Positions 8,252-64,000 of a stretch of DNA of 64,000 nucleotides are shown here, piece after piece. A program made the position numbers and the translations under genes. The stretch lies in the NCBI GenBank assembly GCA_964541905.1, contig CAZIRU010000001.1, positions 2,870 through 66,869 of the forward strand, read 5' to 3'. Source of the stretch: an uncultured Verrucomicrobiota bacterium (GTDB taxonomy: Bacteria; Verrucomicrobiota; Verrucomicrobiia; CAZIPW01). Below the pieces are notes generated by a model. That model was not told where the DNA came from. It ran no database searches and saw only the letters and a program-made list of their open reading frames with translations. Within the stretch, counting starts at the first letter, position 1; each line of letters begins with the position of its first letter.

Positions 8252-9880
8252 CTATTTCTTAGCCGTTTGGAAAGTAAGACGATCCTTCGCCTTGGGCTTG
8301 GCCGTAGCAGCGACCCTTGCCGAAGCGACCACTCTTGCGGCGGACGAGGTGGCCGAGGTGGCGTGCTCCTTGGATTTGCCACGGACGAGCTCCTGAAGCT
8401 GCTCGACGGTTTCGCGCAAGACCATCGCCTGAGAGTTGAGCTCTTCGGCGGCGGCCGCGCTTTCTTCCGCGCCGGAAGCGTTGGACTGCGTGACCGTTTC
8501 CATCTGGCTGACGGCTGTGCTGATTTGTCCAATGCCTTGGCTTTGCTCGCGGCTGGCTTCCGCGATCTGGGCCACTTGGGTATCCACTTGATGGACCTTG
8601 CTGACGATTTCTTCGAGCTTGGTCGAAACTTCTTTGGATTTTTCAACCACCGACTCCACGGCAGCTATCACCTTTTCGTTGGAAGCCACGCCATTGTCGG
8701 AACGCTGGACCGCCGTTTCGATCATTGCCGCAGTCTCTTTGGCGGCCTTAGCTGAGCGCTGGGCCAAATTGCGAACTTCGTCGGCCACGACCGCAAAGCC
8801 CGCACCAGCCTCCCCTGCCCGCGCCGCTTCTACGGCGGCGTTGAGGGCGAGAAGATTCGTCTGGAAGGCGATCTCATCAATAGTCTTAATGATGTTGGAA
8901 ATATCCTGACTGGCCTCTTTGATGGCGCCCATCGCCGTCTTCATCTCGGTGCTGGCCCCGCGAATAGCCTCGATCGAGCGCGACATCTCGGCCGTGCTTT
9001 GCGCCCCCGCCTCAGCTGCCTTGCGGGTGGCCTGCGCCACATCCTTGGTCTGCTGGGCCGTCTCGGCATTGCGCTCAGTCGTCGAGCTGATCTCGGTAAG
9101 AGAGGCGGAAGTCTCCTCAATGGAGGCCGCCTGTTCGCTGGCTCCCTCGGCAAGAGATTGCGACGAAGCCGAAACCTGATCGGCCGCAGCAGTCACCTGA
9201 GAAGCCCCTTCATCCAACGCTCCGGCAATGCGGCCCAACACCTTGTTGAGCTCGCGGGTGATAACGACCGCAAAAAAGATGCCCAAAACCAGCGAAATCA
9301 AACTGACAATAATTGTGGCAGTATTCGCGATAGTGGCCAAATGATCGGTATTCCCTGCGGATTTTTTGGCAAGGGTAAGATTTCGCGTGAGCATCTTGTC
9401 CATTTGCGCCATGTACTTTTCGTAGGCGACTTTGAGTGGTACCATAGCCGTCAGGGCCTCGGCGGTATTGCCCTGTTTCTGAGCCTCAATCACAACGGCC
9501 CGCGTGCGCGCGTATTCTGCGCGCAACTCCAGTAGCTCTTCAAAGTTCTTTTTATCCTCTGGATCGATAATGGCCTTTTCGTAGTTCTCATAGTCCTCGG
9601 TCAGGGTTTCGGCGATCTGCGCCATAATCTTTTCCTGTTCCGCGATATTGGTCTTATCACCATTCACCAGAATGCGCATGACTGCAATATGCGCATCGGG
9701 CAACATGCCGGTGATATTCGACATGGCAACGGCGCTGGGCAGATAGGTCTTGTCAAGGTCTGAGGCCTCGCGAGAGATCTTGCCAAGTGAGATGAGAGAA
9801 ACGGCCGCCAAAACGGCGACGAGCACAAGCACCGTGGCAAAGCCGAAGGTGATTCTTTTTCCAATAGTCCAGTTTTTCAT
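8252..9880 (-). CDS. Methyl-accepting chemotaxis protein
   Basis: N-terminal TM segment, HAMP region, highly Ala/Ser/Glu-rich coiled-coil signalling domain ([32 protein letters not shown]); 542 aa. Confidence 0.85.
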
Positions 9881-38736: not shown

Positions 38737-39186
38737 TCAAGGACGCGGGCGCTTGAGAGTCAGCTTGTGCATAAGCGCCGTCGCATCCTCGACCTTCTCG
38801 AGAAGACTAGCGGCAGCCATGATCGGCTTGCCGGCATTTAACGCCAAAACCATCGCATCGGAAGGTCGCGCGTCCACTTCGACAATCTTTGTGCCCAGCT
38901 CGTTATCCATTTTGAGAATAATGCGTGCGTAAAAGGTTGTACCAAGCGCATCGTTTATTACCATGCGCTCGAAAGAAATGCCAAAACCTGCGCAAATATT
39001 GGTCATCAGGTCGTGGGTAAGCGGACGTTCCTTTTTGACGGTACTCAAGGCCAACGAAAGCGATTGGCCCACCGACGAATCAACATAGATGACGAAAATC
39101 TTTTTGGGCGCGCCCAAAAAGACCGCACAGCCTTCGGCGGCGGGTGCCACGGCTTTGATGGAGACTTCGAGCGAGTCGTTTTGCAT
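38737..39186 (-). CDS. Bifunctional nuclease family protein (BFN/DUF151)
   Basis: Motif VDARPSDAMVLAL typical of the BFN domain; 149 aa. Confidence 0.55.
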   Translation of the reverse strand: MQNDSLEVSIKAVAPAAEGCAVFLGAPKKIFVIYVDSSVGQSLSLALSTVKKERPLTHDLMTNICAGFGISFERMVINDALGTTFYARIILKMDNELGTKIVEVDARPSDAMVLALNAGKPIMAAASLLEKVEDATALMHKLTLKRPRP

Positions 39187-39268: not shown

Positions 39269-39341
39269 GGACGGCTAGCTCAGCGGTTAGAGCATCTGCT
39301 TTACACGCAGGGGGTCAGGGGTTCGAATCCCTTGCCGTCCA
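39269..39341 (+). tRNA. tRNA-Val (anticodon TAC)
   Basis: Acceptor GGACGGC/GCCGTCC, D-arm GCTCAGCGGTTAGAGC, anticodon loop TTTACAC, T-arm AGGGGTTCGAATCCCTT. Confidence 0.85.
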
Positions 39342-40538: not shown

Positions 40539-42554
40539 CTAATTCGACTTGGGCGCGCCTTTCTTAATTGCGGGAGCCGGCGTAAATGCCGAACGAGCCG
40601 CGCGGGAAGGAATATTCGGCCGCAAGAGCGCCGGCTTGGCAGGTCCCTTGGGGGCCTCAGGGAACATCCGCGGCTGGCCGGCTTCCGGAGCCGCTGCGGC
40701 TTCAAAGGAGCTCGTGAGCCCCCTTGTCCCGTAGACCTCCTCCTTAAGCTGCTCGACATAGCGACGGAGCTGGTCGGCCTGAGTGGAAAGCTGGGCGGCT
40801 GCACCCGCAGACTCCTCGGAAGTGGCGGCGTTTTGCTGGATGACTTGATCGAGCTGGCTAACCGCCGTATTGATCTGGTCGATGCCTGCGGCCTGCTGGG
40901 TGGAAGCCTGTTTGACCTCTTCGGAGTGACGGCTGACGTCCTCAACCTGGGTGGCAATGGTATTGAAAACCTTGGTCACCTCTTCGAAGAGTAGCGTTGC
41001 TTCGCCCAGGCTCTTGATGACCTCGTCGGAAGCAACAACGCCCGCTTTGGAGCTTTCTGCCGCCTGGCCAATAAGCTGGGTGGTCTGTGTAGCGTTGCTG
41101 GCGGAGCGCTGGGCCAACTGACCCACCTCTCCCGCAACAACCGCAAATCCCGCGCCCGCTTCGCCCGCGCGGGCAGCTTCAACCGCCGCATTCAGCGAAA
41201 GCAGGTTGGTCTGGAAAGCAATCTCGTCAATTGTCGAGGCCACAACCGCAACCTCTTTGGAGGATTGACTAATGCGACTCATCGCTTCGCGCAGCGCACT
41301 GCCAGCCTCGCGGATGAGCGTCAATTTGCCTTCAAGCTCGTGCATCTTGGAAAGACCTTCGCGGGAAGCCTTATTGGCCTCGACCGCACGCTCGCTGACC
41401 TGTTCGACAGCGGTCGTATTCGTTTTGACCATCGAGGAAATCTCTTCCATCGAAGCCGATGTTTCCTCGACCGTGGCCGCTTGCTCGGAAGAGGCTTCAG
41501 CCAAAGCCTGCGAAGAAGAGGCAATCTCGCCAGAGGCAGAGCCTACTGACTGGCTGGAGGTCGCAAGACCTTCGATGACAGTCTGGATATTACGGACAAT
41601 GGAATTCGCCAAAAGCGCAGCAAAGATGGTCGCTATAATAACCGCAATGACTAGCACCGAAATAATGGAGCGCATCAATACATTGTTGCGCTCAACGGTT
41701 GATTTGTTGAGGGCCGCCTCGTCTTCTAAGGCGCTCATGCGCAACTGCACGCCAAGTTCCAGAATTTTGGCACCAACGGGAATAGTTGTACCATTGATGA
41801 TTTCCCACTTTTCAAATGCGTGCTTCACCATATCGCCGAAATAGCCTTTGTAGGAGGCGTATTCGGTTTTGAAAGATTGAAGGGCTGACTCATGCCCGTG
41901 CTTTCCCGCATACTGCTCTCCCTTCTGCACCATCTCATCGACCTTTTTTAGCTCCGCAAGGGCCGCATCGCGTGTTTCAACCGAATTTGAACTCATGAAC
42001 CGTAAAACGCCTATGCGAGCTTCTGCCATCAGCATCCGTAAATTGGCACAAGCCTCAATGTATTCGGGATCTTGAGAGCCCCTAACCTTCTCGACAAACA
42101 GACTTACAGCCGTCCAGACGGGAGCTCCCTGCTTAAACAATAATGCCTCGGACTTCACATACTCTGCCGTTACAAAGCGCAAGCGCGCCGAAGCATTCGT
42201 GTAAGTCTGCAAGGCCGCATGGATCTGGTCCAACTTGCCCTGATGCGCCTTGGCTTCAGCCATCTTTTCGACTGTTGCCAACGATTCGGCAACCACTTTA
42301 TTGAATGATTCAACTTTTGCGGCTGTCGCGTCGTCGTTGGTCCTGTAGAAGGCCATATTCTGAAGTCGCGCGTTCAGAATATTGGATTCTATGGCGCTTG
42401 CCTGTTCAACGAGGCTAACATAGCGACCGTAGGTGCCAAATGCCTGCACGTTGTTCCAGAGGGCATAAATGCCGACGGCTCCAACTATCAAGAGAGCCGA
42501 CAGCAGTATGGAGGTGTTGGTCCACAAACGAACCTTTAATGATTGTTTTGACAT
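40539..42554 (-). CDS. Methyl-accepting chemotaxis protein
   Basis: N-terminal TM, periplasmic sensor, HAMP and MCP signalling domain ([32 protein letters not shown]); start at ATG 42554. Confidence 0.85.
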   Translation of the reverse strand: MSKQSLKVRLWTNTSILLSALLIVGAVGIYALWNNVQAFGTYGRYVSLVEQASAIESNILNARLQNMAFYRTNDDATAAKVESFNKVVAESLATVEKMAEAKAHQGKLDQIHAALQTYTNASARLRFVTAEYVKSEALLFKQGAPVWTAVSLFVEKVRGSQDPEYIEACANLRMLMAEARIGVLRFMSSNSVETRDAALAELKKVDEMVQKGEQYAGKHGHESALQSFKTEYASYKGYFGDMVKHAFEKWEIINGTTIPVGAKILELGVQLRMSALEDEAALNKSTVERNNVLMRSIISVLVIAVIIATIFAALLANSIVRNIQTVIEGLATSSQSVGSASGEIASSSQALAEASSEQAATVEETSASMEEISSMVKTNTTAVEQVSERAVEANKASREGLSKMHELEGKLTLIREAGSALREAMSRISQSSKEVAVVASTIDEIAFQTNLLSLNAAVEAARAGEAGAGFAVVAGEVGQLAQRSASNATQTTQLIGQAAESSKAGVVASDEVIKSLGEATLLFEEVTKVFNTIATQVEDVSRHSEEVKQASTQQAAGIDQINTAVSQLDQVIQQNAATSEESAGAAAQLSTQADQLRRYVEQLKEEVYGTRGLTSSFEAAAAPEAGQPRMFPEAPKGPAKPALLRPNIPSRAARSAFTPAPAIKKGAPKSN

Positions 42555-56963: not shown

Positions 56964-57037
56964 CGGGCTGTAGCGTAGCCTGGTAGCGCGCTTGCATGGG
57001 GTGCAAGAGGTCGCGAGTTCGAATCTCGCCAGCCCGA
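56964..57037 (+). tRNA. tRNA-Pro (anticodon GGG)
   Basis: Acceptor CGGGCTG/CAGCCCG, D-loop AGCCTGGTA, anticodon stem CTTGC/GCAAG with loop ATGGGGT, T-arm GCGAGTTCGAATCTCGC; TTGACT-17-ATAATA promoter-like element upstream. Confidence 0.8.
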
Positions 57038-57052
57038 AAATCTTTCATCTCT

Positions 57053-57439
57053 ATGCCCAAAGAAATAAAGCTCGTCATTGAAATTAAAAGGTCAGCCTCA
57101 GACGTATTTCAGTTTACAACCAATCCGCAAAATACGCCTCTTTGGATAGATTCTATCGTAGTTGAAAAAGCTTCAGAGTTCCCGCCCAAAACAGGAACTG
57201 TTTACAAAAACAAAGGCAGCGAGGATGTTTGGAGTACCTATGTTGTTGTAGATTGCCAGCCCGATAAGCTCTTTGAGCTGGCCATGACAAATTCAGACTA
57301 TCACGTCCGCTACACTTATACGCCATTGGACGCAGAAACCACTTTATTGGAATATTTCGAGTGGGTGGATCAAGGAGAGCTTCAAGCCCCCTTCACTAAC
57401 GAAACACTACAAAAGTTAAAGAAAGTAATTGAAGCATAG
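57053..57439 (+). CDS. SRPBCC-family small protein
   Basis: 128-aa ORF starting immediately after tRNA-Pro; mixed beta/alpha pattern consistent with SRPBCC/polyketide-cyclase-like fold; lower GC than core genes; assignment by fold-level resemblance only. Confidence 0.4.
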   Translation: MPKEIKLVIEIKRSASDVFQFTTNPQNTPLWIDSIVVEKASEFPPKTGTVYKNKGSEDVWSTYVVVDCQPDKLFELAMTNSDYHVRYTYTPLDAETTLLEYFEWVDQGELQAPFTNETLQKLKKVIEA

Positions 57440-57669
57440 CAAGCTTTCGAATCTGGGGCCTTGAGCTTTTTCACGGATGGAAAATAGGCATTGACGAGCC
57501 GCCTTCTGCGCGACAGAATATCAGCCATGGGAAAACTTAGCGATTTACTCTCTCCAAATAAAAGCTGGGGTGTCCAGACTGTGCAAGATTTTGTGCGCCT
57601 GCCCGGGCTCATCACTCCGCTTATGTTTGCTGCTCCGAGCTTGCGCCGCTCACTATAAACGATTTTGTA

Positions 57670-57942
57670 ATGCTCGATTTGCTCCATGCGGAAGCACATC
57701 GCATCATTCTTTGGTGTGGAACCTCCGGCCAAGAAAGCGCCGCAATTGCCAACATTGATAGGGCTATCGGCAAATATTCCTTCGGCGGCTCAAGACCAAG
57801 CGATGAAATATTAAAAGTTTCTCGCTGGCTGGCTTGCAAAGATCCTAATGAGGCCAAGGCGTTCTGGGCCGACTTGTTCGCCAAAAACAGAGTAAACTTG
57901 AACACCCTTGAGGAGGACGTTGCCGCGAGAATCGCATCTTAG
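57670..57942 (+). CDS. Hypothetical protein, possibly 3-prime part of a frameshifted gene
   Basis: 90-aa ORF; an upstream 44-codon ORF (57527-57658) in another frame may be its disrupted N-terminus; overlapping minus-strand ORFs make the call uncertain. Confidence 0.25.
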   Translation: MLDLLHAEAHRIILWCGTSGQESAAIANIDRAIGKYSFGGSRPSDEILKVSRWLACKDPNEAKAFWADLFAKNRVNLNTLEEDVAARIAS

Positions 57943-58654: not shown

Positions 58655-59077
58655 CTAGAATACCGGACGGAAAACAACCTTTGACCCCGCTTTGGCCTGG
58701 ACATTGCTGCCCTGCTGCCAAACTTGGTCGTTGAGGAGGACCTTGAATTCGAGATTCTCTTTACTGTCGCTCGTCCATACCCACGTGCGGTTTTGATATT
58801 CCATCGGCTGGCTTTTCTCCCAGCTTAAGCCGGCCCCCTGCCCGCGGATGCTGAGGCTATTGCCATAGCCCACGTCGATCTGGGCAACCACTTGGGTGGC
58901 GCCGGAAGTTGACTTGGAGGCTTTCGGCGCAAACGGGTTCATTTTGGAAAAGTTGGACTTCTGCGATTGCGGTTTTTCGGGCAGTTCGGCAACAGCAATA
59001 GAGCTTTGGCAGGAGGATCCTGCTTGGGAGGCGCAGCAAGAAGATTTCTTGCTATTGGATTTTTTAGGAGCTGGCAT
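58655..59077 (-). CDS. Hypothetical protein with Lys/Ser-rich N-terminus
   Basis: N-terminal low-complexity basic region (PKKSNSKKSS...) and Trp-containing beta-rich C-terminal half; no family recognised. Confidence 0.3.
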   Translation of the reverse strand: MPAPKKSNSKKSSCCASQAGSSCQSSIAVAELPEKPQSQKSNFSKMNPFAPKASKSTSGATQVVAQIDVGYGNSLSIRGQGAGLSWEKSQPMEYQNRTWVWTSDSKENLEFKVLLNDQVWQQGSNVQAKAGSKVVFRPVF

Positions 59078-59178
59078 AAGATTCTATTGGGTTTATCGTC
59101 TTTTAAACACCCCTACGGCCAATTTGGCAAGCGATTTCGAGAGATTTTCTTTGGGAAGTTCCGACCGGAGGGGGCTAT

Positions 59179-59412
59179 TTAGAGCTTCTTGTATAAGTTT
59201 GACACAGTCGTATTTAAAACTTTTGCAAAAACAACAACCTCTCTATCAAGCACGTTTCTGAATTGAGATTCTATTTGGGCCATCGTATCGCGAGTTATAT
59301 CCAGCCCATTTAGCTGGCATTTTACAGCCAACTCGCGCTGCGTAAGCCCAATAGCAATTCTATGCTTGCGGATTATCGGGCCGACAATATTTCGGTCTTT
59401 TTTCTTTTTCAT
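59179..59412 (-). CDS. XRE-family helix-turn-helix transcriptional regulator
   Basis: HTH_XRE pattern IRKHRIAIGLTQRELAVKCQLNGLDITRDTMAQIE; 77 aa; AT-rich context. Confidence 0.6.
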   Translation of the reverse strand: MKKKKDRNIVGPIIRKHRIAIGLTQRELAVKCQLNGLDITRDTMAQIESQFRNVLDREVVVFAKVLNTTVSNLYKKL

Positions 59413-59492
59413 AGCGATTCGCCAATGTTATCAGAGAATCACTATTGACTTGTGAACGTGGAATCACACAATGGAATTACTTCCAGCGAAGT

Positions 59493-59621
59493 ATGAGTTT
59501 CATAACGGCCATAAAATGTATCGCCTCTATATTGTTTTGGAGCTTTATTGTGCTCCTAATTATAGCGGTACTTTTGTTTCCTTTCTATCTGATAGGATAT
59601 TTTCACAAGGACGATGATTGA
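59493..59621 (+). CDS. Putative small hydrophobic peptide (42 aa) divergent from the XRE regulator
   Basis: MSFITAIKCIASILFWSFIVLLIIAVLLFPFYLIGYFHKDDD: one TM helix with acidic tail; not in ORF track (below 60 aa); could be a chance ORF in AT-rich DNA. Confidence 0.25.
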   Translation: MSFITAIKCIASILFWSFIVLLIIAVLLFPFYLIGYFHKDDD

Positions 59622-59652
59622 CTTGTTTTTGGGGCCGACCCACGCTTTGCTT

Positions 59653-59741
59653 ACCAGCCGCATTGACAAGATCTCCCCTTTGCCTTTAGGCTATTTATCT
59701 CTTTAGCGGGGTCTTAGCTTTCGTTGGTAGAGCGACTGGTT
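59653..59741 (+). repeat. Degenerate partial duplicate of tRNA-Ala upstream region plus 5-prime half
   Basis: About 89 nt matching 59827-59914 with roughly 6 differences; includes TTGACA and the tRNA 5-prime half through the anticodon stem (GGGGTCTTAGCT...GAGCGACTGGTT). Confidence 0.7.
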
Positions 59742-59881
59742 GATTCGGCCCGCCGGCCTCACCCCTTCGGGGCGCTCCGCTCACGCTGCGCGTCTGATGG
59801 CGTACTCGCCATCATCGCCAAGGCTCACCAGCCGCATTGACAAGACCGCCCCTTTGCCTTTAGGCTATTCATCTCTTTAGA

Positions 59882-59954
59882 GGGGTCTTAGCTCAGTTGG
59901 TAGAGCGACTGGTTCGCAATCAGTAGGTCAGGGGTTCGAATCCCCTAGGCTCCA
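59882..59954 (+). tRNA. tRNA-Ala (anticodon CGC)
   Basis: Acceptor GGGGTCT/AGGCTCC with the G3:U70 pair characteristic of tRNA-Ala, D-arm GCTCAGTTGGTAGAGC, anticodon loop TTCGCAA, T-arm AGGGGTTCGAATCCCCT. Confidence 0.85.
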
Positions 59955-59964
59955 CAGAGCTTCT

Positions 59965-60363
59965 CTACACTTCCAGCAGGATTTTCTCGACCTTCTTCGC
60001 TTTGTTGCAGGTTCGTTCTACGCCCCTCGTCGCCTCATTGAAGCTTCTCTGATCTATTCCGAGGGCCTTCACCCAATCCGAAACACGCTTGAAGGGAATT
60101 TTACGGTCTAATGCTGCCGGAAGATGAATGCAGCTCGAACGCCCACCCGCTTGTACGGAAGGCAATTTACCAGCCAGCTTGTCCGGCAGCTGCAACCTTA
60201 CACCCTTCCCTGCTGGAATAATCGCAACACCGAGGCTTCCCAAAATTTGTTGCACTCTTTCTCGCTTTATTTGAATGGGTAAGATATGCACTATTGTAAA
60301 GACAATTCTAGAGCTTTTTAGAAAAATTCTCTCAAATTCTACCCTACCCTCTCCGCAAGCCAC
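59965..60363 (-). CDS. Hypothetical protein adjacent to tRNA-Ala
   Basis: 132-aa ORF, no motif recognised; 25-nt overlap with the glyQS start makes its true start uncertain. Confidence 0.25.
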   Translation of the reverse strand: MACGEGRVEFERIFLKSSRIVFTIVHILPIQIKRERVQQILGSLGVAIIPAGKGVRLQLPDKLAGKLPSVQAGGRSSCIHLPAALDRKIPFKRVSDWVKALGIDQRSFNEATRGVERTCNKAKKVEKILLEV

Positions 60364-62888: not shown

Positions 62889-64000
62889 ATGACAGAAGTT
62901 GAAACCGAAGCGCCCCTTACAGATTCCCTTATTCCTCGATACAGCACACCCGCCGAAGTAAAGCCTGAGGATGCTTTTGTTGGCGATCTTTTCAACCGAA
63001 AACCTTTAGCAGAACGGCTTATCCATCTTATCGGAAGAATGAAAGATGGGTTTGTACTCTCGGTTGATTCAGGCTGGGGTTCAGGGAAAACGTATTTTGC
63101 CAGACACACGGTTGCTTTGATGAAAAAACAACCAGAGGATAAAAAAGACACCAAGACTAAAGTTGTCTATCTCGATGCTTTCAAAAATGATTTTTTAGAA
63201 GAACCGTTTTTGCTTATAGCGGCGGAGATTTTAAAAGCCATCGGTAAAAATGATGAAGCCGAAAAGGCTATTGGACGCATTATTCGTTCAGGGATGTTAG
63301 TTACTGGAAAAGAAATAGGATTACAGCTCGTCAAACATTGGACTGGCGCCGATCTTCAAGATGCTATTGATAAAGTTACAGATCAGATAGAAAGAGACAA
63401 AGATATAGCCACACAACTCAAAGAAAGATACGAAGCCGCAACATCAACCATCACGGATTTCAAAACCGAACTCAACAAGGCGCTGCAAGGCAAACAGCTT
63501 GTTATTTTCATTGATGAACTTGACCGCTGCAAACCCCCATTCTCCGTAAAACTTCTTGAGTATCTCAAGCATCTCTTCGACGTTAAGGGTCTTGTCTTCG
63601 TTTTAATGATTAATCGAGAAGCCCTCGTCAGTTCTATCGCAGGCGTTTACCACCTCGACAAACCAGCCGCCAGCGAGTATCTAAACAAGTTTATAAATCT
63701 AGATTTCAAGATCCCTGTAATTACTACAAGCAACTATAAAAACAAAGGTTCTGATGATTATATTGCTTTCTGTAGAGCTTTTTTTCAAAGAAATTTCAAA
63801 CAGGACACCCAGGCAAAACAGCTAGATCATTTTATACAATCCTTTTCATATTTTTGTGAGTATTATAAACTTCCTCTTAGAAAAATAGAGACGGGAGCAA
63901 TAAACTGGATCACAATCACTCCGCGTTTCGAAGAGACCAATAAGGGCGTTTGTGAAGACATTTGCTTTCGCCGAATAAGTCTATGTTCTTGGTTTGTCGC
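62889..64000 (+). CDS. KAP-family P-loop NTPase, 3-prime truncated by window end
   Basis: Open frame from ATG 62889 to the window end (370 codons, no stop; not in ORF track). Walker A VDSGWGSGKT, Walker B LVIFIDELDRC; low GC (about 40%). Confidence 0.6.
   Translation, partial: MTEVETEAPLTDSLIPRYSTPAEVKPEDAFVGDLFNRKPLAERLIHLIGRMKDGFVLSVDSGWGSGKTYFARHTVALMKKQPEDKKDTKTKVVYLDAFKNDFLEEPFLLIAAEILKAIGKNDEAEKAIGRIIRSGMLVTGKEIGLQLVKHWTGADLQDAIDKVTDQIERDKDIATQLKERYEAATSTITDFKTELNKALQGKQLVIFIDELDRCKPPFSVKLLEYLKHLFDVKGLVFVLMINREALVSSIAGVYHLDKPAASEYLNKFINLDFKIPVITTSNYKNKGSDDYIAFCRAFFQRNFKQDTQAKQLDHFIQSFSYFCEYYKLPLRKIETGAINWITITPRFEETNKGVCEDICFRRISLCSWFV

Follow-up and report, generated by a model that had tools for sequence, protein, structure and literature searches.

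The tRNA-Ala(CGC) gene of an uncultured Verrucomicrobiota bacterium is preceded by a second, decaying copy of its own promoter and 5' half. In the stretch of DNA analyzed here (64,000 nt, referred to below as the window), the two copies form a direct repeat of 93 nt with 91% identity and exact boundaries. Related loci lack this repeat, and the DNA around it has an unusual base composition. We read the repeat pair as a non-functional, lineage-specific recombination scar. As to its origin, we tentatively favor a decayed integrative element in the 5'-fragment configuration, with a crossover in the anticodon loop.

The promoter and the 5' half of tRNA-Ala(CGC) are duplicated

A repeat of the promoter and the tRNA 5' half had been predicted from the sequence by eye, and its existence was confirmed by alignment and by blastn. 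In a self-comparison of the window, the repeat was the top self-match (93 columns, 91.4% identity, E = 5e-30), with similarity extending far beyond 20 nt. Copy 1, the upstream copy, was also matched by nhmmer (E = 5e-19). No third copy was found in the window, and no older fragment was detected to the left of the helix-turn-helix gene, where it would have been a sign of a tandem array of elements. The second-strongest self-match is a 135-nt direct repeat with 73% identity (8751-8885 and 41101-41235). Copy 1 lies on the plus strand, 174 nt upstream of copy 2 and in the same orientation (see Table 1). The predicted position held for the repeat itself, but the left end is located 4 nt further to the left, and the interval between the copies, which had been put at about 85 bp, measures exactly 81 nt.

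The repeat is composed of 71 nt with 93% identity, followed by an indel patch in the D arm (3 versus 2 nt) and by 19 identical nt. The substitutions, given as copy 1 versus copy 2, are 59652 T versus 59826 C, 59672 T versus 59846 C, 59674 T versus 59848 G, 59696 T versus 59870 C, and 59707 C versus 59881 A; the D-arm patch reads TTC at 59720-59722 in copy 1 and CA at 59894-59895 in copy 2. The left end of the repeat is located 14 nt upstream of the -35 box, and thus a complete promoter is contained in the repeat. At the right end, identity extends through T33 (tRNA position 33), which is the second anticodon-loop base, and stops there.

The source of the window is a metagenome-assembled genome, and contigs from other sequencing runs end within the tRNA. 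Assembly could therefore have stitched two strain variants of the promoter-tRNA region in tandem. However, these contigs break in the tRNA body at 59899-59927 and not at the repeat. In addition, the stretch from copy 1 through the spacer to copy 2 is covered by contigs from SRR8925805 and SRR8925774 that are 100% identical to the window. Both unique junctions and the unique 81-nt spacer are present in these independent de Bruijn assemblies. An assembly artefact is thus hardly credible.

Table 1. Features at the tRNA-Ala(CGC) locus (positions in the window)
Feature	Position	Strand	Remarks
Low-GC segment	59080-59648		41% GC; outside the repeat pair; absent in related locus L104
Small XRE-type helix-turn-helix gene	59179-59412	-	Pfam and PHROG helix-turn-helix matches
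58-aa ORF	59445-59621		Unsupported
Copy 1	59649-59741	+	Displaced, decaying promoter region (59 nt) and pseudo 5' half; nhmmer, blastn
-35 box of P1 (TTGACA)	59663-59668	+	Promoter of copy 1; read from sequence
-10 box of P1 (TAGGCT)	59687-59692	+	18-nt spacer to the -35 box; read from sequence
Pseudo 5' half in copy 1	59708-59741	+	Corresponds to tRNA positions 1-33 with a 1-nt D-loop insertion
Spacer	59742-59822	+	81 nt, 70% GC; three short perfect hairpins, no T-run terminator
Spacer hairpin GGCC-CGCC-GGCC	59747-59758		
Spacer hairpin CCCC-TTC-GGGG	59762-59772		
Spacer hairpin GATGGCG-TACT-CGCCATC	59796-59813		
Copy 2	59823-59914	+	Working promoter region and tRNA positions 1-33
-35 box of copy 2 (TTGACA)	59837-59842	+	Read from sequence
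-10 box of copy 2 (TAGGCT)	59861-59866	+	Read from sequence
tRNA-Ala	59882-59955	+	Anticodon CGC, G3:U70 present; ARAGORN; Rfam RF00005, 69.8 bits
Orphan 132-aa ORF	59965-60363	-	Between tRNA and glyS; 47% GC; doubtful reality

Copy 1 has the properties of a pseudogene fragment

The minimum free energy (MFE) fold of the tRNA-Ala(CGC) gene is a cloverleaf (z = -2.8). Its sequence is identical in the related locus L104, and in L089 and L121 it differs only at the compensating 7:66 pair. This acceptor pair (59888/59947) is T-A in the window and in L104 and G-C in L089, L121, and most metagenome loci. It is a clean compensatory double change, with the remaining tRNA positions identical.

Neither ARAGORN nor, even at E ≤ 10, the Rfam tRNA model detected copy 1, and at this locus they found only the gene at 59882. 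This agrees with the earlier claim that the upstream copy cannot fold into a tRNA. A match to the Rfam family RtT lies on the opposite strand with E = 3.1 and was dismissed as chance. The D-arm change is restricted to copy 1 (GCTC-AGTTGGTA to GCTT-TCGTTGGTA), in which A14 is lost and one base is gained. Because copy 2 matches the tRNA of the relatives exactly, we conclude that the damaging D-arm changes arose in copy 1. The copies diverge by ~8.5% in the promoter part and in the tRNA part alike, an even pattern that would be expected under neutral decay. Judged from its sequence, copy 1 is a pseudogene fragment and not a functional tRNA gene.

Conceivably, the arrangement is kept for use, either as a small tRNA-like RNA with G3:U70 or as a second tandem promoter for tRNA-Ala(CGC). 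For the segment 59705-59782, MFE folding gives a four-way junction whose acceptor-like stem retains G3:U70, and the arrangement is identical in three assemblies. However, this cloverleaf-like fold is no more stable than those of shuffled sequence (z = -0.73), and no Rfam match was obtained; on these grounds, copy 1 with the spacer was ruled out as a tRNA-like structured RNA.

As for a second promoter, each of the four tRNA genes in the window is preceded by a TTGAnn -35 box and a -10 box of the TAnnnT type, which ends 9-15 nt before the tRNA. The hexamers are 18 nt apart in the tRNA-Lys, tRNA-Val, and tRNA-Ala promoters, and the spacing of the tRNA-Pro promoter is ambiguous. In the relatives L089 and L104, the tRNA-Ala promoter is laid out as in the window. 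P1, the promoter of copy 1, keeps both hexamers and the 18-nt spacing of copy 2. It thus has the hexamers and the spacing typical of tRNA promoters in this genome and qualifies as a candidate promoter of the sigma-70 type. In a generic consensus promoter scan P1 was not listed, because its -10 box is weak. Its intact hexamers are statistically uninformative, because at 8.5% divergence zero changes in their 12 nt are expected ~35% of the time by calculation. At another tRNA gene of the window, a perfect 24-nt palindrome (39099-39122) is located ~150 nt upstream of tRNA-Val (39269-39341).

No intrinsic terminator was found between the copies, which, together with the intact P1, fits a role as a second promoter. 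Against any kept function speak the even spread of the differences between the copies and the absence of the arrangement from 25 of 25 related loci (see below). A further objection concerns the long transcript that P1 would give rise to: in its predicted fold, the pseudo 5' half acts as a competitor for pairing and the true acceptor stem is missing, an arrangement that would impede maturation. We therefore regard a kept function as improbable.

Most probably, the repeat has no activity at present. The sole plausible activity, on sequence grounds, would be that P1 fires, reads through the terminator-less spacer, and adds a tRNA transcript with a long leader. This transcript, initiated near 59700, would cross the spacer into the tRNA and yield a precursor of ~250 nt beside the normal transcript with its short leader. 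Given the predicted fold, such long P1 transcripts might mature poorly.

The repeat lies in DNA of mosaic composition

The DNA upstream of tRNA-Ala is a compositional mosaic, with 41% GC in the segment 59080-59648 and 70% in the spacer, compared to a mean of 55% for the window. The low-GC segment falls within the lowest 1.7% of windows of equal size, and the spacer in the top 1% of 81-nt windows. Two hairpins had been described in the spacer before; both are present, and GGCC-CGCC-GGCC adds a third. The spacer sequence is unique within the 64-kb window. No significant similarity was detected between the spacer and the tRNA 3' half, the downstream DNA, or the reverse complement of the repeated unit (p = 0.33-0.76, shuffles). 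The 81-bp interval contains no ORF of note.

Several explanations of the spacer were rejected. TRF detected no tandem array at the locus, and a simple head-to-tail tandem duplication was excluded, since the spacer is unrelated to the sequence after copy 2 and TRF finds nothing. The possibility that the spacer represents a tRNA 3' half that has diverged and has its T stem flipped (TCA-CCCC-TTCG-GGGG-CGCTCC versus TCA-GGGG-TTCGAAT-CCCC-TAGGCTCC) was dismissed as well, the resemblance being no better than in shuffles. In the palindrome TGATGGCG-TACT-CGCCATCA (59796-59813), each arm resembles CGCAATCA, the tRNA's anticodon loop and 3' stem, and both arms deviate from it by one and the same change. 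This recalls an inverted anticodon-arm fragment in L121, which is described below. A derivation of the palindrome from the anticodon loop (10/12 and 8/9 matches) was not significant when compared with shuffles (p ~0.45-0.73).

The low-GC segment harbors a small XRE-type gene. Its only homologue shares 82% identity at the protein level and 77.6% at the DNA level and is found in an unrelated gene context. At the DNA level, the similarity to the segment of the other organism extends over 59174-59522 and includes the gene and ~70 nt of its upstream region. The homologue in L111-L114 has a FabH-like gene and a 314-aa gene as neighbors, which are unrelated to the window. In both genomes, the GC content of the XRE-type gene is clearly below that of its surroundings. 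From these sequence comparisons, the gene appears to move horizontally as a unit of ~300 bp. Because it is located outside the repeat pair, it was not cargo of the event that formed the repeat.

The original prediction had placed the tRNA in a decayed island marked by low-GC hypothetical genes on both sides. This part did not survive: the genes lie outside the repeats, and between the repeats there are 81 bp and no island. On the upstream side, 58655-59077 is a conserved, syntenic 140-aa gene with 54% GC, which is a neighbor in the relatives too. On the downstream side, the evidence came from an orphan ORF that is doubtful as a gene and has 47% GC. This 132-aa ORF has no match in Pfam, PHROG, or NCBIfam and, among 5.8 billion proteins, matched itself alone. 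Public assemblies annotate it as a gene; it shares 25 nt with the 3' end of glyS and ends 10 nt from the tRNA. According to these features it is probably not a real gene, and as an orphan of no family it was discarded as a candidate island gene.

The earlier observation that the locus lacks an integrase was borne out: within ~8 kb on either side, no integrase and no other mobile-element family is on record, several genes there being without any family. At the end of the window, the low-GC region 62889-64000 (38-45% GC) contains a KAP-family NTPase gene that runs off the window end; this region is possibly acquired DNA.

Related loci lack the duplication

The organism is placed in the order Opitutales of the Verrucomicrobiota, and the relatives available for comparison are distant. 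For the glycyl-tRNA synthetase (GlyRS), identity to the best genome representatives reaches at most 63%, and the DUF374 protein is at most 65% identical to any protein outside its own species, with the nearest homologues at 55-65%. The contigs of the relatives P0002, P0003, and P0004 end before tRNA-Ala. Synteny through glyS offered no comparison, because none of 18 Opitutales/Verrucomicrobiota loci in a genome collection has a tRNA near this gene.

The comparison with related tRNA-Ala loci, suggested with the original prediction, gave a uniform result: the tandem arrangement was present in 0 of the 25 related tRNA-Ala(CGC) loci compared. A metagenome scan for two tRNA 5' halves located 141-171 nt apart yielded no matches.

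Five more distant lineages share a neighborhood of ligA, tRNA-Pro, DUF374, in part the 140-aa gene, and tRNA-Ala. In L104, 117 nt separate the 140-aa gene from tRNA-Ala. In L118 and L119, tRNA-Ala follows 62 nt after DUF374, and in L121 it is preceded by a hairpin-rich intergenic region of 440 nt. In L089 and L107, tRNA-Ala is inverted and lies among other genes. The window has ~740 extra bases between the 140-aa gene and the tRNA-Ala promoter, made up of the 41%-GC segment, copy 1, and the spacer. All five lineages show a break in synteny at the tRNA-Ala locus, and because the flanking genes differ in every lineage, we regard this locus as a recurrent rearrangement point. The flanking ORFs of 22 related loci were inspected by eye, and no obvious integrase was found beside the same tRNA.

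A second variable stretch lies between tRNA-Pro(GGG) and DUF374 (56964-57940), adjacent to a tRNA as well and 2 kb from the tRNA-Ala region. In the window it contains a low-GC (44%) SRPBCC-family gene and small ORFs. Elsewhere this stretch is occupied by six unrelated small genes (L089:2231-6000) or by a DHFR gene (L118-L120).

In L121 (JGI 3300021182, contig Ga0215010_10058053), one of the 25 related loci, internal pieces of the tRNA were detected at 2388-2430, a short distance before the tRNA-Ala promoter. An inverted 20-nt piece matches AGAGCGACTGGTTCGCAATC at 19/20 positions (E = 1e-4), and a direct piece (13/14, GGTAGAaCGACTGG) forms a fold-back with it. The 9-mer ACCAGCCGC within this fold-back recurs in the window, where it directly precedes the -35 box of each copy. 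The gene-free region L121:2100-2480 contains many GC hairpins, and its fold is more stable than those of all 100 shuffled versions (z = -3.0). Rfam gave no match for this region, and it shares no similarity with the window's spacer.

Origin of the repeat

A single event whose right-hand breakpoint lies where the anticodon loop begins would account for two copies of the promoter with tRNA positions 1-33. The upstream copy would have lost the 3' half and would now be decaying as a pseudogene fragment, and the downstream copy, joined to the 3' half, would constitute the working tRNA-Ala(CGC) gene. In the case of a decayed element, a circular element would have integrated whose attachment site carried its own promoter and tRNA 5' half. 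The body of this element would later have been lost, leaving 81 bp between the attachment sites and no integrase. The involvement of an integrase and the later deletion are steps that we infer. The junction of the circular element is predicted to read ...CATCGCCAAG/GCTCACC...GACTGGTT/GATTCGGCC..., with the promoter and the 5' half between CATCGCCAAG and GATTCGGCC.

We favor a decayed element because copy 1, located upstream and oriented like the intact gene, is a terminal 5' fragment whose end falls in the anticodon loop, and because the repeat contains a promoter, which an element on the 5' side must supply. In the same direction point the sequence past T33 in copy 1, which is unrelated to the 3' half, and the tRNA-damaging changes, which are found in copy 1 alone. 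The repeat is fixed in three assemblies and absent from 25 related loci. Finally, the flanking genes differ in five lineages, and the spacer and the adjacent segment lie at opposite extremes of GC content.

Several points argue against a decayed element. No integrase or mobile-element family is on record in the surroundings, and 81 bp is far below the size of any known island, so that a near-total deletion sparing both ends must be assumed. Searches of viral, phage, and plasmid collections turned up no matching element: scans of viral contigs with a junction 21-mer, two spacer pieces, and the tRNA body gave no matches, and blastn of 59600-59830 returned nothing from phages and one 29-nt chance match from plasmids. 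The nearest relatives, with ~55-65% protein identity, are too distant to polarize or date the event.

The geometry corresponds to that of known tRNA islands. In the Islander survey, 159 of 3919 islands displaced a 5' fragment, and anticodon-centered sites were the commonest (PMC4383910). The Islander rules ask for an end fragment, with a 5' fragment lying upstream on the same strand, an interval of at least 2 kb, and an integrase (PMC4383910). We applied them with a known crossover sublocation (anticodon loop, T loop, or T/acceptor junction), a tyrosine integrase gene that lies in the interval or overlaps it, and an interval of 2-200 kb with foreign genes. At our locus, the fragment is an end fragment (tRNA positions 1-33 and 59 nt upstream), copy 1 lies upstream on the plus strand, and identity ends after T33 in the anticodon loop. 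As in the 5' fragment class of Islander, an intact tRNA is accompanied by a cognate upstream 5' fragment, and the repeated block contains all that is required to rebuild a transcribed gene. Unlike in this class, where at least 2 kb and an integrase are present, the interval is 81 bp (compared to 2-200 kb) and contains neither integrase nor cargo. The original reading as an integrative scar thus remains legitimate in its geometry, but an island and an integrase are missing, and an integrase-free origin is possible. The general statement that partial tRNA duplications are typical scars of integrative elements refers to 3' fragments, and the fragment found here is of the rare 5' type.

Elements that lack an integrase and retain attL and attR form a recognized category, the CIMEs (PMC5704250). 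As in a CIME, a pair of direct repeats at a tRNA gene flanks DNA without a recombinase. A difference is that nothing recognizable is left at this locus and no cognate element is known to mobilize the remnant. Known CIMEs occupy gene 3' ends and exceed this 81-bp remnant in size.

A somewhat less likely alternative is a local duplication that did not depend on an integrase. A replication or repair error would have copied the 93-nt unit of promoter and 5' half and linked the copy to a filler of 81 nt, followed by the decay of copy 1. Such an error could be template switching or the repair of a break at the anticodon stem-loop, which forms a hairpin and is heavily transcribed. The lack of an integrase and of cargo, with 81 bp alone between the copies, fits this explanation. 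The fold-back tRNA fragments of L121 are unlike the scar of an attachment site and suggest error-prone events around the anticodon arm in the clade. A precedent is provided by partial trnF pseudogenes with duplicated promoter motifs in plastids, which arise without integrases (PMC3786074). However, the duplication is not a simple tandem, given that TRF finds no array and that the spacer is unrelated to the 3' half and to downstream DNA. Inspection of the sequence revealed no microhomology at either junction, and the 70%-GC filler has no source in the window. A local duplication would also leave both ends to coincidence, the left one just outside the promoter and the right one in the anticodon loop, and the same holds for the foreign-looking spacer.

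The plastid case was compared in detail. Arrays upstream of trnF(GAA) are found in Brassicaceae, Solanaceae, and Asteraceae and are integrase-free (PMC3786074). They resemble the present locus in that partial, dead tRNA copies lie upstream of a working gene and duplicated -35/-10 motifs of the sigma-70 type are present (PMC3786074). They differ in being multi-copy arrays of 32-73-bp units that are centered on the anticodon domain, mostly lack the acceptor stem, and have an ATTG border (PMC3786074). The window has instead a single 93-nt copy with the acceptor and D arms, which stops before the anticodon and is followed by an unrelated 81-nt spacer. As a single copy without the anticodon, it is not an array of the trnF type. 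In Escherichia coli, the tyrT-rtT locus has 178-bp tandem repeats with a fragment of tRNA-Tyr, located beside the working tRNA gene and co-transcribed with it. These repeats lie downstream and carry the tRNA 3' end, whereas the copy in the window lies upstream and carries the 5' half.

A more specific version of the decayed-element explanation would be an undescribed verrucomicrobial element whose target, from the 5' side, is the tRNA-Ala(CGC) anticodon loop and whose attachment site includes a whole promoter and the 5' half. Its retained promoter would act as a second tandem promoter and rewire tRNA expression. We consider this combination unlikely.

Meaning for annotation and for the Verrucomicrobiota

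The kind of feature described here is already known and ordinary, and the locus is a new example of it. It is a clean case of a tRNA fragment of the rare 5'-side type in which the repeat includes the promoter, and it matters mainly for careful annotation. A repeat that ends in the anticodon loop does not by itself prove an island, and tools that find tRNA fragments need a size and an integrase filter before an island is called. To our knowledge, few mobile elements have been described in Verrucomicrobiota. If the integrative origin is true, the locus would point to a family of elements in this phylum that target tRNA genes from the 5' side. If P1 fires, the repeat would be a natural promoter duplication for a tRNA-Ala(CGC) gene.
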